This document shows positions 12,196 to 58,026 of a DNA stretch of 64,000 nt, in pieces. How positions within the stretch are numbered: position 1 is the first letter of the stretch; each line of letters starts with the position of its first letter. The notes below the pieces were generated by a model. The model saw nothing but the letters and a program-made list of their open reading frames with translations, did not search any database and was not told the origin of the DNA. The DNA lies in the sequence record NC_018087.3. One strand, given 5' to 3'. Origin of the DNA: Acinetobacter phage ZZ1. Position numbers and translations under genes: made by a program.

Positions 12196-12269
12196 TGGTC
12201 GTTCAGGACGGATTCGAACCGTCACACAGAGTTTTAGGGACTCCTGGTCTACCGTTAACCTACTGAACG
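12196..12269 (-). tRNA. tRNA with anticodon CUA (candidate amber suppressor; C at position 33)
   Basis: Sense strand cgttcag-ta-ggtt-aacggta-gacc-a-ggagt-ccCTAaa-actct-gtgt-gacgg-ttcgaat-ccgtc-ctgaacg-a-cca. Perfect acceptor and T stems. The 7-nt anticodon loop ccctaaa places CUA at positions 34-36. Confidence 0.5.
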
Positions 12270-12566: not shown

Positions 12567-12599
12567 AAAAGTTACCTCTTAATTGAGGTAACTGAGGTA
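12567..12599 (-). terminator. hairpin terminator downstream of gene 12602..12859
   Basis: 9-bp stem agttacctc/gaggtaact with loop ttaatt. Confidence 0.4.
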
Positions 12600-34410: not shown

Positions 34411-35016
34411 GTGGATATCAATATTGAAAACATTTTAAAAACATGGTTGCCTGAAGATATTTGTCAGGAATATATTGATATCTTACACAGACCTATAGTA
34501 GGCAAAACAGAAAAACATCATATCTTACCTAGATCTCTTTTTCCTGAACATATTAAAAATCCTAATAATTTAATTGAATTATCAATTTATGATCATCTTG
34601 AAGCACACGAATGTTTAGCAAAAACAAATGAACATAAAATGATTTTAGCTTTTAATTTTATGTTTACAGCTAATTATAGAAGATATTCTACTTTAACTGA
34701 AGATCAAAAATTAAAAGTAAAGGTAAAAAGAACTAAAGTACGACTTGCAATGTCTGATGTTAAATCAGAACAGGGAAAACTGTACATTGGAGAAAAAAAT
34801 CCTTTTTATGGAAAAACTCATTCTGATGAGACAAAAGCGATAATAAGCTCGCATCATAAAGGCAAAAAATTATCTGCCGATCATATTGCAATTCTTGTTG
34901 CTTGTCATAAAGGTAAACCAAAGCGCAAAGTTAAATGTCCTCATTGTGGTCAATTAATTGCAATACATGCTAAAAACCGACGACACTTTGATAATTGTGC
35001 ATATAAGGAGAATTAA
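34411..35016 (+). CDS. HNH homing endonuclease inserted between genes 14 and 15
   Basis: HHILPRSLFPEH...NLIELSIYDHLEAHE is an HNH motif. C-terminal CPHCG...C zinc ribbon. Confidence 0.7.
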   Translation: MDINIENILKTWLPEDICQEYIDILHRPIVGKTEKHHILPRSLFPEHIKNPNNLIELSIYDHLEAHECLAKTNEHKMILAFNFMFTANYRRYSTLTEDQKLKVKVKRTKVRLAMSDVKSEQGKLYIGEKNPFYGKTHSDETKAIISSHHKGKKLSADHIAILVACHKGKPKRKVKCPHCGQLIAIHAKNRRHFDNCAYKEN

Positions 35017-35017
35017 A

Positions 35018-35840
35018 ATTTTTGGTCACTGGTACAACTCCTCTCTCCGTCGCTATTGTGTTTTAATGGGTGATTTATTCTCTCATGTACAAAGTAATGC
35101 GTCGGAGAGAAGGTGATAAAATAGAATTAATTAAAGTCCCTATTACATTTGCTTCAAAAGAACGCTTTATTATGAAACTAGATGCAAAAACATCAGTTAA
35201 TAATGGAGATGGTTCTATGGCAAAAGTGGAAACAATTTTGCCAAGAATGTGCTTAAGCTTGGTAGATTTAGTATATAACCCAACATATAAAACAAATATA
35301 ACAAACAGAACTATCAGGAATCCTGCGAGTAAAACCTCATTAATTTCGCAATATAATCCGGTTCCGGTTAAAATGATTTTTGAGTTAAGTGTTTACACTC
35401 GACATCAGGATGATATGTTTCAAATTATTGAACAAATATGGCCATATTTTCAACCACATTTTTCAACCCAAATGAAAGAATTGCATGGCAATGATATTAC
35501 ATTTGATAGAAATATCAGAGTTACAATGCAGTCGGTGGCCTTAGATAATCAATTAGAAACAGACAAAACTACACGACGCCGATTGGAAACTGCTTTTATA
35601 TTTGAAGTTAATGGGTGGTTATACCCACCTGTTGCTGAAATTGCTGGTGAAATTCGTACAATTTATATTGATCTTTTTGCAAATGAAAAAGAGTTAAATG
35701 CCTCAGGACGCTTTGAATCGGTTGACACTCAAGTATCGCCAGAAGATATAGATTATAATGATTGGGACGGTAATCTTATACAGTCAGTTTCGGCCAATGT
35801 TCCTATTCCTGTTGCACCTGAACCACCTCACCCAAGGTAG
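35018..35840 (+). CDS. 15: gp15 tail sheath stabiliser/terminator. Apparent ATT start and a +1 frameshift near 35090-35096.
   Basis: Frame 2 from 35018 (ATT, RBS AAGGAG 7 nt upstream) encodes [25 protein letters not shown]. This matches T4 gp15 MFGYFYNSSFRRYATLMGDLFSNIQ and then hits a stop. Frame 0 (track ORF 35070..35840) continues [20 protein letters not shown], matching the T4 run ending in VPITYASKE. Confidence 0.6.
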
Positions 35841-48751: not shown

Positions 48752-49870
48752 TTAATAAATGATACCAACTTCAAATGCAGATCGATGAATAATTCGACCA
48801 TTACGAGATTCTTGAACATCAACTTCAGGGAAGTCTTCTAACATTTTTGCAAGAACCGCTAAATGGCAGTAATAGGGCGAATCCTCTTTTGTAGCGGATT
48901 TCCAATCTTTACCTTCTTTGGTTAATTTTTCGATGGCATCCATTACCCACCATCCAGTCCAAATATACGCAGAATTACGTTGTGGCAAAGGATGAACATA
49001 TACTAATGGGCATTCTTCAGGAACTTCAATTGTTTTAACTGAAATAGCCAATTCATTAGAAGTTACGGTAACAGAATCATAATCAGTAGCAGAAACAGCA
49101 ACAGTTAATTTTACAGTTTCAGTGCCAGCTTCCGTAGGTGTTTTTGTTAAAGTATTTCCCGTAGAATTATCAGACCATTTATACTCAACAGTTGCACCTT
49201 CTGGTATCCCATTCACTGCAGATGTTATTGTATATGATTCGCCTAATTTAATAACTGGCGTTTCAGTTGCAATAACAACCGTTGGAGACATAGTTTTATT
49301 TTTAATAGTAATTTGAACAGCATTTGATGTAGCTATGCCATCTTGATAGTTTGGTGCTTTAACGGTAACTTTACAAGTATATGATGTTTGGCTATTTTTA
49401 GCAGCTATAAGTGCAATACTTTTGGTTTTATTTGTGCTAGCACTACCCCAATCATAATCAATAGTAGCACCTTCTGGCGCCCCAGTAACTTCACATGTTA
49501 AAGTATATTGATCGCCAATTGTAACGAGTTCTTTATCCGTAGTAAGAAGAACTGTTAAATTCATAACGTTGTCTTCAACAGTTAAAGTAACAGTGTCTTC
49601 GGCTATTGAATCTTCAGTATCTTGAGCCTTTGTTGTTGCTATTACCTTAACAGAATATGTTCCTGCTTTTGCGGGCTTATACGTCATTGTTGATGCGGTT
49701 GAATCTTGTGCAGCACCATCTACAGTCCAAACATATGTTGTAATAGCATCAGGAATTTCTTCGGTACCACTGACTGTTGCAGTGAATAACTGCGATTTTC
49801 CTGTTGCAATTGATGCAGCGACTGGCGTAATTTTTACTGTTGTTGCCATTATTCTAGGCTCCGTTGTCAT
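48752..49870 (-). CDS. hoc: Hoc-like capsid decoration protein with three Ig-like domains
   Basis: 372 aa versus 376 aa in T4. Three ~90-aa beta-rich repeats (TYSVKVIATT..., SYTCKVTVKA..., ETVKLTVAVS...) and a distinct C-terminal domain. Confidence 0.65.
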   Translation of the reverse strand: MTTEPRIMATTVKITPVAASIATGKSQLFTATVSGTEEIPDAITTYVWTVDGAAQDSTASTMTYKPAKAGTYSVKVIATTKAQDTEDSIAEDTVTLTVEDNVMNLTVLLTTDKELVTIGDQYTLTCEVTGAPEGATIDYDWGSASTNKTKSIALIAAKNSQTSYTCKVTVKAPNYQDGIATSNAVQITIKNKTMSPTVVIATETPVIKLGESYTITSAVNGIPEGATVEYKWSDNSTGNTLTKTPTEAGTETVKLTVAVSATDYDSVTVTSNELAISVKTIEVPEECPLVYVHPLPQRNSAYIWTGWWVMDAIEKLTKEGKDWKSATKEDSPYYCHLAVLAKMLEDFPEVDVQESRNGRIIHRSAFEVGIIY

Positions 49871-49926
49871 TGTGAATGATTTTTCTAATGTTAGTTCTTG
49901 ATTGACGTAATCAGGATGAGATAATT

Positions 49927-50157
49927 TTATACACCTTTAATTGTGTGTTTACCAGGATGAGTAGCCGGTATAGCTAATTCATTTTCTTTAATAGATTCAA
50001 CAATATTATTATCCAAATACCATATAGGCTTATGGATAGTTAATTCATCGGAATTTTCTATTAAATCAAGTCCAGTTATATTATGTACAGCAGTTAATAA
50101 CTCACCCCAAGGCGATAACTTTATCATTAAGATATACTGGAACTTCCGGTATATCAT
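49927..50157 (-). CDS. hypothetical protein
   Basis: 76-aa ORF. Confidence 0.35.
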   Translation of the reverse strand: MIYRKFQYILMIKLSPWGELLTAVHNITGLDLIENSDELTIHKPIWYLDNNIVESIKENELAIPATHPGKHTIKGV

Positions 50158-52515: not shown

Positions 52516-52546
52516 AAAAAGGAGCCGTTAGGCTCCTTTTTTATAC
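52516..52546. terminator. bidirectional intrinsic terminator after uvsW
   Basis: ggagcc-gtta-ggctcc hairpin between an A5 run and a T6 run. Confidence 0.55.
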
Positions 52547-54018: not shown

Positions 54019-54414
54019 TCAACGTCCAGCGCCAGATAATTGTAATTTCAATTGTTCTAGTGTATCAGGATTATCTAGGATACTGAATAAGACTGTTACG
54101 ATAATCGCATTGGCATCATATTGTGCTTGCACATCAACTGAAAGTCTAACAACCCTTGGTTCATATCGTCTAATTGCCGATGTAATACTTTTTTCAATAG
54201 TATTGGCTGTTAAAGGTGTCATATTTTCAAATAAGCTATCACCAATATCACATCCGAATTCTGGATCAAATGGTTTCGATCCTTTAGGTGTAGTAATAAT
54301 TCCAACTAAAGAATTTTTAACCGCTCGGGCCCCGACTGAAGATGACATGTCTCTATTCCATGCCATCTTCATATCGGGTGATATGTCTTTATACATATCA
54401 TTAATATTTTGCAT
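54019..54414 (-). CDS. 25: gp25 baseplate wedge (GPW/gp25 family)
   Basis: 131 aa versus 132 aa in T4. Synteny 25-26 on the opposite strand to 51-27. Confidence 0.75.
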   Translation of the reverse strand: MQNINDMYKDISPDMKMAWNRDMSSSVGARAVKNSLVGIITTPKGSKPFDPEFGCDIGDSLFENMTPLTANTIEKSITSAIRRYEPRVVRLSVDVQAQYDANAIIVTVLFSILDNPDTLEQLKLQLSGAGR

Positions 54415-55058
54415 TATAAAATCTCCATAAAGCTCTTAAACCCTTTTATAATATGAACATGTGATTTGCCACATGATTTACATTTAATTGGTACGGGTAA
54501 AACCGGTTTTGGTGTCAATAAAATATTTTTAATTTTTTGAAGATGATCTTCTGTTAATAATTCATATAAATCATTTAATTCAGTGTCATTTAAATCTTCA
54601 ATATTAATACGTTCTGTACCAATATAAATTGCCTCTATGCATTCAACAATCATTTTGGTAATATTATCATCAGCCCAAAGCTTTGGCCAACGTAGTTTTA
54701 ATTTAAATTTATCGATTGGATATAATTCTTCAATTGATACATCATTATAATCAATATAAGTATGGCTAACATTTAATTTAACACTTTGTGTATGTCCACA
54801 TTCGCATGTATAATCTTGCTGAACAATATCTTCATGTTCTGATGCTGCTATTAACATAATCAAAATTAATTCGGCTTGATGTTTTTCATTGTGCGTATAC
54901 GATGTATTGTTCATTAAAATATCGGAATATGCTTTTTTCAATAATTCGGAATCTGCATTTAGTTTTGCCAAATTTAATGCAGTATGTTCTCTCAATGTAT
55001 AAGTTTTAGCGTTAACAGATTCGGTATCAAGATTGATCGATAATTTTTTTTCAAACAT
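54414..55058 (-). CDS. 26: gp26 baseplate hub
   Basis: 214 aa versus 208 aa in T4. Confidence 0.65.
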   Translation of the reverse strand: MFEKKLSINLDTESVNAKTYTLREHTALNLAKLNADSELLKKAYSDILMNNTSYTHNEKHQAELILIMLIAASEHEDIVQQDYTCECGHTQSVKLNVSHTYIDYNDVSIEELYPIDKFKLKLRWPKLWADDNITKMIVECIEAIYIGTERINIEDLNDTELNDLYELLTEDHLQKIKNILLTPKPVLPVPIKCKSCGKSHVHIIKGFKSFMEIL

Positions 55059-55092: not shown

Positions 55093-55104
55093 TATTTATA
55101 AATA
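55093..55104. promoter_or_regulatory. overlapping divergent late promoters: TATTTATA for gene 26 (minus) and TATAAATA for gene 51 (plus)
   Basis: tatttataaata lies between the divergent gp26 and gp51 starts. Confidence 0.5.
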
Positions 55105-55125
55105 TTTTAATAAACGGAGACCTCT

Positions 55126-55880
55126 ATGGCTAATATTATTAGATGTAAATTACCAGACGGCGTTCATCGTTTCAAACCATTTACTGTTGCTGATTACCGT
55201 GACTTTTTACTGGTTAGAAATGATATGGTCAGTAAAGACGAAGAAGAACAAGAAGTTTTGGTGAATGAGCTTGCTGCAGATTATTTTGGTGAATACCCAG
55301 AATCATGGCAGCATTATTTTTTTTTCAAGCCTTTACGGGATCAATTGGTAAAACTAAAATTCCAATTGTATTTGAATGTCCTGTATGCGGCAAAAAAACA
55401 AAGCGATTATTTAATTTGTCTCAGGGACCTTTAGATAACCCTAAAGTACAGTTAAATGACGATACTTATATTTCATTTAAATTTCCAGAAAATTTAGAAG
55501 ACGAACCAAGTCAATTGATATTAAAAAATGTAGATAAAATTGAATATCAAGGTTCTACTTATAATTGGATGGAATTATCGAAAGAAACACAAGATGCAAT
55601 AATTTCAATGATTAATTTTGAAAAGTTTGAAGCTATTGTTAAAATGTTAAAGCCCCTGCATTTTGAAATGAAATTAAAGTGCTGTGAAGAACATACCTTG
55701 GTTTATGATGATTTATGTTCTATTTTTAAATTATTAATAAATCCTGACGAAGTATTTCCATTTTATGAAATTAATCATATCTTAATTAAAAATAATTATG
55801 ATATTAATTCAATTATGGCAATGCTTCCAGCAGAACGTTCAATTGCTTTATCTTTGATTGAAAAGGATAATAAAAAATGA
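55126..55880 (+). CDS. 51: gp51 baseplate hub assembly protein, interrupted by a frameshift in a T9 run (55317..55325)
   Basis: Frame 1 ORF 55126..55434 and frame 0 ORF 55305..55880 overlap at a T9 run. Joined length is ~251 aa versus 249 aa for T4 gp51. The downstream part contains CPVCGKK. Confidence 0.6.
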
Positions 55881-57466
55881 CAGTGCAACAAAAACCAGGA
55901 TATCCTAACGTTAGTATTAAGTTGTATGAAGATTATGATGCTTGGACGGATAATCGATTTGTAGAATTGGCTGCAACATTTACAACATTAACAATGCGTG
56001 ATGGTCTATACGGAAGAAACGAAGGTATCTTGCAATTTTATGATAATAAAAATATGCATATGAAAATGGATGGAGATCAAATTGTTCAGATTTCATTATC
56101 TAATGCAAATTCTAAAGATGTAGTAACTCGATTATATGGTGTTAAAGATAGTTCTGTTTCTGTTGATTCTAAAGGCGATAATATTATTGCGTTTAATTTA
56201 GCACCCTTACATGTTGTTGAAAATGTGTTATTTAGCAGAGCATTTTTTGCTAATGCTACTGAAACTATTCAAACTATGATCGATTCAATTTATCAGAAAC
56301 GTGCCGAGATTAAGCCTAAAGTAGAAGGTATTAACATTTATGTACCTCGTGTTGCTTGGGTTAATGGTATTACTGAATATATGGATTATGTTCGTGAAAT
56401 TGGTATTTCTGTTGATTCGGAAACACATGCCTTTGTTTGGGAAGATATTTCTGGTATTAATATTACTGATTATAAATTTTTAATTGATCAAAAACCTCGC
56501 GTTATGGTTGTCGGGGATCAAAAACAAGTCGGTTCTTATGTTCAGCATATGGAATATGGTCTGGCTTATGATTTTACATGGTTAACTAAAACAAATCGCA
56601 ATATACGCAACCCTTTAACTGATGTTACAATATATTCACATTCATTTAATGATAAAGAAATTCAGCGTATTTCAATTGGAGAAGGTACAAATACTGTTGT
56701 TGTATCTCGTTCTGGTGGATATTCTGAAATGACATATCGTAATGGATATGAAGAGGCCTTTAGATTATTAACAATGGCCCAATATGATGGTTATGCTACA
56801 TGCAAATTAGTTGGTGATTTTACTTTAACGCCTGGTGTCAAATTGAATTTCGGCGATCGTAAAAATCAATTCGCTACTGATTTTTATATTGATGAAGTCG
56901 TACATGTTATTACAAATAATTCATCAGAGACACATTTATACATGTTTACTAATGGTAAAGACTTAGTTCCTGTTGAAATTGAAAAAATTAAAAATGAAAT
57001 CGAAACTATCACACCGCCTTCAGATACAACACAACCAGAAGCGATGGGTGATAAGAAAGGTGCTCAATGGGATTTAGATAAATTGGCCGAAGTTGTCACA
57101 AGAAATGCTCAAGGACGTAAAGCTACTGGTAAATGTGCATTGTATGTTCGTAAGGCATTACAGGCAGCACAATTGCAAAGTTTCTTTGCCGGTGGTTTAG
57201 GAAATGCAAATGAAATGGCTAAACCTCTTGAAAATATGGGCTGGATTGCTGTTGGTCAAAATGTTAAAAACGTTAAAAAAGGCGATATTTCAATATTCAT
57301 GAAAACTAATACCCCATTAGGTTCACAGTATGGACATATTGCGATCTTTAATGGAAGTCAATGGGTGTCAGATTTTATTCAAAATAGTGTACAACCTAAT
57401 TCAAAAGATAACTTAACTTATACAGTTTATAGAGCACGTTATGGTTATAGTGCGGGAGGTAATTAA
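55877..57466 (+). CDS. 27: gp27 baseplate hub with C-terminal CHAP (Cys/His amidohydrolase-peptidase) domain
   Basis: 529 aa versus 391 aa in T4. The ~135-aa C-terminal extension TGKCALYVRKAL...GDISIF...YGHIAIFNG matches the CHAP/NlpC-P60 Cys...GD...GH pattern. Confidence 0.65.
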   Translation: MTVQQKPGYPNVSIKLYEDYDAWTDNRFVELAATFTTLTMRDGLYGRNEGILQFYDNKNMHMKMDGDQIVQISLSNANSKDVVTRLYGVKDSSVSVDSKGDNIIAFNLAPLHVVENVLFSRAFFANATETIQTMIDSIYQKRAEIKPKVEGINIYVPRVAWVNGITEYMDYVREIGISVDSETHAFVWEDISGINITDYKFLIDQKPRVMVVGDQKQVGSYVQHMEYGLAYDFTWLTKTNRNIRNPLTDVTIYSHSFNDKEIQRISIGEGTNTVVVSRSGGYSEMTYRNGYEEAFRLLTMAQYDGYATCKLVGDFTLTPGVKLNFGDRKNQFATDFYIDEVVHVITNNSSETHLYMFTNGKDLVPVEIEKIKNEIETITPPSDTTQPEAMGDKKGAQWDLDKLAEVVTRNAQGRKATGKCALYVRKALQAAQLQSFFAGGLGNANEMAKPLENMGWIAVGQNVKNVKKGDISIFMKTNTPLGSQYGHIAIFNGSQWVSDFIQNSVQPNSKDNLTYTVYRARYGYSAGGN

Positions 57467-58026
57467 TGCAAGGTATTCATTTAAATATTGTACCGGAAAC
57501 TAAACAGCTAAATGTAAACGGTAAAACTATTAAAGTCCCAAAGCTGGGACTTAAGCATAGATTACTTTTAAAGCCAAATGAAAATCATGAAGAGTCAATG
57601 AAAACATTATTAGCTTCTATTGCTCCTAATTTATCCATGGCAGAGCGTGATCTATTAACTATACATTTACTAGCGTATAATGGTAAGATTCCAAATACGG
57701 TCATTAAGGACGGTCATACGTATTCTATTGAAGATGTGTATATATGCCAGAAATTAAAATTCACATATGGTGATTACGAGTTCAAATTTAGATCACCTAC
57801 ATTTGAACTTTTGAAAGGTCCGGCCGATATACTGCTAAGTCAATGTTGTGTATATGTTAAAAAGAATGATGAAAAAATACAAGTGCCTGATTTTATGGAT
57901 TTGCCTCCATTTGTCATTAATTGGGTGGAACAAATTACAAAAACGATTGCTATTGATGGTCCAAACGGACCAATTAAAGGCCTTTATGAATTAGTGGAGT
58001 TATTCGATGGACCAACCAGCTCGTAA
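57466..58026 (+). CDS. 28: gp28 baseplate hub distal subunit
   Basis: 186 aa versus 177 aa in T4. Confidence 0.65.
   Translation: MQGIHLNIVPETKQLNVNGKTIKVPKLGLKHRLLLKPNENHEESMKTLLASIAPNLSMAERDLLTIHLLAYNGKIPNTVIKDGHTYSIEDVYICQKLKFTYGDYEFKFRSPTFELLKGPADILLSQCCVYVKKNDEKIQVPDFMDLPPFVINWVEQITKTIAIDGPNGPIKGLYELVELFDGPTSS

Follow-up and report, generated by a model that had tools for sequence, protein, structure and literature searches.

A frameshift within gene 51 in the deposited genome of Acinetobacter phage ZZ1 and its probable origin as a residual sequence error

Gene 51 as deposited

The DNA analysed here, referred to below as the window, is a stretch of 64,000 nucleotides that corresponds to positions 64001..128000 of the Acinetobacter phage ZZ1 genome (NC_018087.3), and the coordinates in the supplementary table of the ZZ1 genome paper (PMC4177764) agree with those of the window once 64,000 is subtracted. 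Gene 51 sits in the hub cluster between gene 27 and the divergent gene 26, and the relatives are annotated alike. The gp25 and gp26 homologues occupy 54019..55058 on the minus strand, and the homologues of gp27 and gp28 are found at 55877..57466 and 57466..58026, respectively. The gp26 protein (54414..55058, minus strand) also belongs to the T4_baseplate family (E=4.4e-44), and is a paralogue of gp51. Direct reading of the sequence upstream of gene 51 identifies a putative late promoter on the plus strand (TATAAATA, 55097..55104), called from its match to the T4 late promoter consensus, and a GGAG Shine-Dalgarno sequence (55116..55119, plus strand) placed 6 nt before an ATG codon at 55126.

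The reading frame that starts at this ATG is gp51-like as far as the residues WQHY, after which 35 unrelated codons lead to a stop at 55434, so that the product has 102 aa (MANIIRCKLPDGVHRFKPF...ESWQHYFFF before the unrelated tail). The N-terminal part of gp51 (55126..55325, plus strand) comprises 66-67 codons that end in a run of T's, matches positions 1-72 of the Pfam profile T4_baseplate (E=1.7e-15), and is identical to the protein of phage W16 up to WQHY. A second open reading frame of 191 aa (55305..55880, plus strand) lies in the -1 frame, is gp51-like from QAFTGSIGK on, and reads ...FFFQAFTGSIGKTKIP... to its end. The C-terminal part of gp51 (55326..55880, plus strand) runs in this frame through a TGA stop, matches profile positions 69-219 (E=6.6e-34), and has the same residues as the W16 protein from QAFTG onward to its last position. 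Only this C-terminal frame is annotated as the gene 51 product in the ZZ1 record, under the name "baseplate hub assembly catalyst" (AHI44677.1/YP_009001469.1, exact-sequence match). No Shine-Dalgarno sequence or other ribosome-binding site was seen when the sequence upstream of its internal ATG at 55305 was read directly.

Within 55300..55330, the raw sequence is ...tgg cag cat tat ttt ttt ttc aag..., and the T9 run (plus strand) spans 55317..55325 and is followed by a C at 55326. As deposited, the site is TATTTTTTTTTCAAG, and gene 51 is 755 nt long. Comparison with intact relatives, which carry A-T7-A plus one more base at this position, places the -1 change of frame between 55318 and 55325, i.e., within the run. 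The raw sequence, the list of reading frames and their translations agree in this respect, and confirm the claim of an earlier note on this DNA that gp51 is split by a frameshift at a T9 tract. That note had located the junction string tttttttttc at 55317..55325; the nine T's are indeed there, and the string including the C extends to 55326. One added base produces a 756-nt gene that encodes 251 aa plus a stop, equal in length to the gene in the relatives, and a -1 shift or one additional U on the T9 run yields exactly the same 251-aa gp51. The earlier comparison of about 251 aa in ZZ1 with 249 aa in T4 also holds, the T4 match being 747 nt or about 249 codons. The T9 tract is the only homopolymer of at least nine nucleotides in the window. 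From composition alone, we estimate that about one such run would be expected, but its exact coincidence with the break in the frame is not due to chance. An RNA hairpin, probably fortuitous, is predicted at 55329..55391 (plus strand), 3 nt after the run, with a minimum free energy of -19.2 kcal/mol (z=-2.98).

In the supplementary table of the genome paper, the gp51 homologue is listed as CDS203 at 119305..119880 with 191 aa, and its ribosome-binding site is given as TTAATAAACGGAGACCTCTATG (PMC4177764). This string precedes the ATG at window position 55126 (genome position 119126) and not the listed start of CDS203, and the published annotation is internally inconsistent in that it combines truncated coordinates with the ribosome-binding site of the 55126 start.

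The downstream gp27 homologue (55877..57466, plus strand) encodes 529 aa, of which about 130 aa extend the baseplate hub protein at its C-terminus; T4 gp27 has 391 aa. In this extension, a weak CHAP match to residues 416-491 (24.3 bits, just below the cut-off of 26) and a match to Tae4 amidase suggest, at the level of sequence, a cell-wall peptidase fused to the hub protein. Acj9 gp27 is listed with a length of 528 aa in the ZZ1 supplementary table (PMC4177764).

Gene 51 in near-identical and wider relatives

A megablast search retrieved phages W16 (vB_AbaSt_W16) and Henu6 at 99% identity or more, and 25 Acinetobacter T4-like phages at about 72% identity, and the gene is continuous in all of them. 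The same intact 251-aa gp51 is present in two independent assemblies, Logan SRR33991142 and the ENA metagenome scaffold ERZ28646472. These four near-identical genomes are 98-100% identical to ZZ1 over gene 51, and all four contain a single continuous frame of about 250 codons, which is lacking in ZZ1 as deposited. At the site of the split, W16, Henu6, Logan and the ENA scaffold read TAT ATT TTT TTA CAA GCC (Y I F L Q A; TATATTTTTTTACAAG), as compared with TAT TTT TTT TTC AAG CC in ZZ1. Within the 755-nt gene, ZZ1 differs from W16 and from the ENA scaffold only by one missing A and one A>T substitution, located 8 nt apart, while the region around gene 51 otherwise differs by about 1% between ZZ1 and W16. 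The T9 run and the frameshift in ZZ1 result from exactly these two private differences. The run is found in none of the near-identical relatives, and the homologous 64 kb of W16 and Henu6 contain no run longer than eight nucleotides. The earlier note had named T10 or T8 as the resequencing result that would mark an assembly error; the relatives point instead to A-T7-A within a gene of 756 nt, which makes a simple homopolymer undercall, i.e., T10 read as T9, less probable than it had seemed at first.

In gene 51, 13 substitutions separate the Logan variant from W16, and all are synonymous (13/13); the gene can therefore be taken to be under purifying selection in this lineage. When repaired, the 251-aa ZZ1 protein matches the Pfam family T4_baseplate (PF12322) over residues 1-202 in one stretch with 187.7 bits (gathering cut-off 24.5), and it is 46% identical to T4 gp51 over the whole length. 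The junction lies inside this single domain, of which profile positions 1-72 are matched by the first fragment and 69-219 by the second. With the repaired protein as query, tblastn matched 1378 phage records, and in 1373 of these at least 80% of the query is matched at a single place; gp51 is in one piece in all 60 matches listed.

Searches for the split form itself were negative. No other contig with the gene called as exactly the 191-aa product is on record, and the 102-aa product was not found in the protein collection by exact look-up. The pattern TGGCAGCATTA N0-3 T7 N0-3 CAAGCCTTTACGGG, which admits the site with any state of its flanks, gave 0 matches in viral and metagenome contig collections; these lack this lineage and are therefore uninformative on this point.

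Other private differences in the window

When the complete window was aligned with its 64-kb counterparts in W16 and Henu6, seven unpaired one-base indels were seen in which ZZ1 alone differs from both relatives. Four are intergenic (9632, 10952, 13191 and 48752), and the remaining three are in coding sequence, where each breaks a conserved gene, namely those for gp15, Hoc and gp51. The gp15 homologue (35018..35840), whose T4 counterpart is an essential tail protein, contains an additional A at 35091 that is private to ZZ1 (CAAAG, compared with CAAG in W16 and Henu6). This parts the conserved N-terminus from the remainder of the tail sheath stabilizer, and in the ZZ1 record the annotation is limited to the 251 aa that follow. 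The gp15 indel is probably another residual error. In the hoc homologue (48752..50157, minus strand), a private one-base deletion at 49931 (TAT-AC, compared with TATAAC) splits a Hoc-like head decoration protein of 468 aa into frames of 76 and 372 aa, and the pieces are listed in the ZZ1 table as CDS193 ("unknown") and CDS192 (PMC4177764). For both gp15 and hoc, the ZZ1 pieces from the two frames line up with the uninterrupted proteins of W16 and Henu6 with perfect continuity across the indel, and the sites, being runs of two or three A's, cannot reasonably be expected to support slippage. According to the ZZ1 authors, errors of assembly had left "many split genes", and these were amended "by PCR + sequencing", which resulted in a genome of 166,687 bp (PMC4177764). 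The gp51, gp15 and hoc splits look like errors that were missed by this correction.

Some further features of the window are noted for their own sake. The conserved N-terminus of the gp15 homologue (K-I-F-G-H-W...; region 35007..35026) has ATT at 35018..35020 with GGAG 7 nt upstream, at a position equivalent to the ATG of T4 gp15, and the gene may start at a non-canonical AUU, as judged from sequence; in W16 and Henu6, annotators chose an upstream TTG or ATG. A Mob-like homing endonuclease gene (34411..35016, plus strand) is intact in ZZ1 and encodes 201 aa, but has a 12-nt deletion in W16 and a one-base insertion in Henu6 (window positions 34784 and 34808), which fits ongoing decay of this selfish gene in the relatives. 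The phage tRNA cluster includes a tRNA with anticodon CTA (12196..12269, minus strand), which ARAGORN labels tRNA-Pyl. It would read the amber stop UAG, W16 also has one (L005 12472..12545), and it could be a phage-encoded suppressor tRNA. Two GC-rich hairpins (12570..12595 and 52520..52540) have identical stems in ZZ1 and both relatives, but their loops are reverse-complemented; one reads ACCTC-TTAATT-GAGGT as compared with ACCTC-AATTAA-GAGGT, and the other GGAGCC-GTTA-GGCTCC as compared with GGAGCC-TAAC-GGCTCC. Hairpin-loop inversion or an assembly effect could account for these differences.

Origin of the split and comparison with known systems

Based on these observations, we infer that the gp51 split is a residual sequence error in the ZZ1 record, and neither a real mutation nor a real feature of the phage, with a probability of roughly 0.85. 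This reading is favoured because, of five near-identical genomes, only that of ZZ1 shows the T9 run and the shifted frame, because its record holds two other private ORF-breaking indels at non-slippery sites, and because the authors themselves reported split genes caused by assembly errors. A difference confined to a single record that has further private indels and a documented quality problem is what would be expected of an artefact. Gene 51 of ZZ1 would then be an ordinary single ORF of 251 codons, with its own late-promoter-like TATAAATA and the GGAG sequence before the ATG at 55126. Its true sequence would be TAT ATT TTT TTA CAA (Y I F L Q), which is what all close relatives have, and the error would be local to 55317..55325, where it would have been recorded as TAT TTT TTT TT- CAA, with A-T7-A turned into T9, one base lost, and the ORF artificially split. 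The long homopolymer is probably itself part of the artefact. Of the alternatives that the earlier note had left side by side, the one-base indel error is favoured, and transcriptional slippage or programmed -1 frameshifting finds no support. Some points speak against an error. PCR and Sanger sequencing were used to verify part of the revised ZZ1 record, possibly including the gp51 site. A substitution combined with a deletion is no simple homopolymer miscount, and is unusual for Illumina. If real, the T9 run would be prone to slippage, with a predicted hairpin downstream, and some full-length gp51 could be made.

Were the T9 run a real and recent change private to the laboratory stock of ZZ1, full-length gp51 could still arise through slippage, as an adventitious rescue and not an evolved signal, either by RNA polymerase adding one U on the U9 tract or by ribosomes slipping -1 on U UUU UUU. 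The gp51 protein is thought to act catalytically in T4, such that little of it may suffice, and either route would give exactly the 251-aa protein. Nine A's or T's is the length at which slippage turns efficient in many bacteria (PMC1088944), and the uninterrupted T9 run at the junction (55317..55325) reaches this threshold. The heptamer U UUU UUU at 55317..55323 (0-frame codons uaU UUU UUU) fits the X XXY YYZ pattern of -1 frameshift sites, and the hairpin follows 3 nt after the run. A private mutation would, however, require two changes, the A>T substitution and the loss of an A, in a gene with no other difference from that of W16, and the orthologues conserve neither the run nor a disrupted frame, since they have A-T7-A and a continuous frame. 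Furthermore, the gp15 and hoc frameshifts, which are likewise private and lie where no slippage can occur, indicate a record-wide quality problem, in line with the assembly errors reported by the authors (PMC4177764), and the hairpin sequence is shared by unshifted relatives and missing in a more distant one. We consider a real T9 run with slippage rescue unlikely. If it did occur, the shifted product would carry the junction peptide YFFFQAFTGSIGK (...HYFFFQAFTGSIGK), the 0-frame product would end in ...HYFFFKPLR, and, should rescue be required, replacement of T9 by TTCTTTTTC should abolish both rescue and plaque formation. An essential baseplate-assembly gene would then be kept working only through slippage on U9, perhaps helped by the hairpin, as a very recent "saviour" recoding in a T4-like phage. 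Such a natural slippage-rescued essential phage gene would represent a modest gain, given that the phenomenon is already well documented in bacteria.

An inactivating mutation that is real but tolerated appears very improbable. It would imply that the 191-aa fragment suffices or that gp51 is dispensable in the host, perhaps with gp26 as a backup, and the annotation of the 191-aa ORF as the gene and the membership of gp26 in the T4_baseplate family agree with this. The internal ATG at 55305 lacks a ribosome-binding site, however, conservation between T4 and ZZ1 includes the N-terminal 67 residues, selection on gene 51 is purifying as seen from the Logan variant, and gene 51 is essential in T4. 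To an evolved programmed -1 frameshift or slippage event, by which the 102-aa protein and full-length gp51 would be made in a fixed ratio in analogy to the G/GT chaperones, we assign almost no likelihood. The layout is formally similar to that of G/GT, with a common N-terminus, a -1 shift and a longer product, both a slippery heptamer and a predicted downstream hairpin are present at the junction, and the name "tape measure protein assembly chaperone" has been given to gp51 homologues by some annotators. Programmed recoding is, however, defined by conservation of the two-frame arrangement, and neither this arrangement nor the slippery site was found in any relative compared; the gene is continuous in the four genomes that are 98-100% identical, in the 25 Acinetobacter T4-like phages and in about 1370 other records. 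The 35-codon tail of the 0-frame exists only through the shift, and no Shine-Dalgarno-like element was seen upstream of the T-run when the sequence was read directly. A G/GT-like chaperone frameshift was rejected on the grounds of absent conservation and of a break that bisects one Pfam domain. A stimulatory RNA structure is expected 5-9 nt downstream and should be specific to the frameshift site. The hairpin was likewise rejected as evidence of programming: its sequence is shared without change by W16, Henu6 and the ENA scaffold, all of which are unshifted, and the equivalent region of a 72%-identical relative has no stable fold (z=+0.42). Its signal also disappears in a 161-nt context (z=-0.54).

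With a residual error as the preferred explanation, the main value of the analysis is for curation. In the ZZ1 reference record, the exemplar of Zedzedvirus zz1, gp51 is annotated in a truncated form of 191 aa, and the split gp51, gp15 and hoc genes should not be taken as biology, nor be copied into the annotations of related phages.

Among known systems, residual indel errors in deposited phage genomes (PMC4177764) resemble the present case in being private to one record and situated in a T-rich, low-complexity stretch, in being accompanied here by the private gp15 and hoc breaks, and in belonging to an error class that the authors reported for this very genome. They differ in that the change in ZZ1 gp51 is a substitution plus a deletion and not a pure length miscount, in a record that had already been corrected once. 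Transcriptional slippage on 9A/9T runs is known to restore disrupted ORFs (Baranov et al. 2005, PMC1088944), as in Citrobacter rodentium tssM (PMC4256274), and as in those cases nine T's are located exactly at a one-base disruption, where one added U restores the full ORF. Unlike those, the ZZ1 run is known from the deposited string alone, and is not conserved in orthologues. The programmed -1 frameshifts of dnaX and lambda G/GT share with ZZ1 an X XXY YYZ heptamer followed by a predicted hairpin, but the gp51 relatives have no slippery site or change of frame. Similar to lambda G/GT, ZZ1 gene 51 belongs to a tail-assembly cluster, with the tape measure gene (29) lying downstream; the shift in G/GT, however, appends a second domain, and the shift in gp51 splits a single one. 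Compared with T4 gp51, the baseplate hub assembly catalyst of family PF12322, whose ORF is continuous in T4 as in about 1370 other records, the ZZ1 gene as recorded is broken by one missing base, but otherwise corresponds in its Pfam domain, in the 46% sequence identity, in the length of the repaired protein (251 aa, about 249 aa in T4), and in a gene order with 25 and 26 on the minus strand followed by 51, 27 and 28 on the plus strand.
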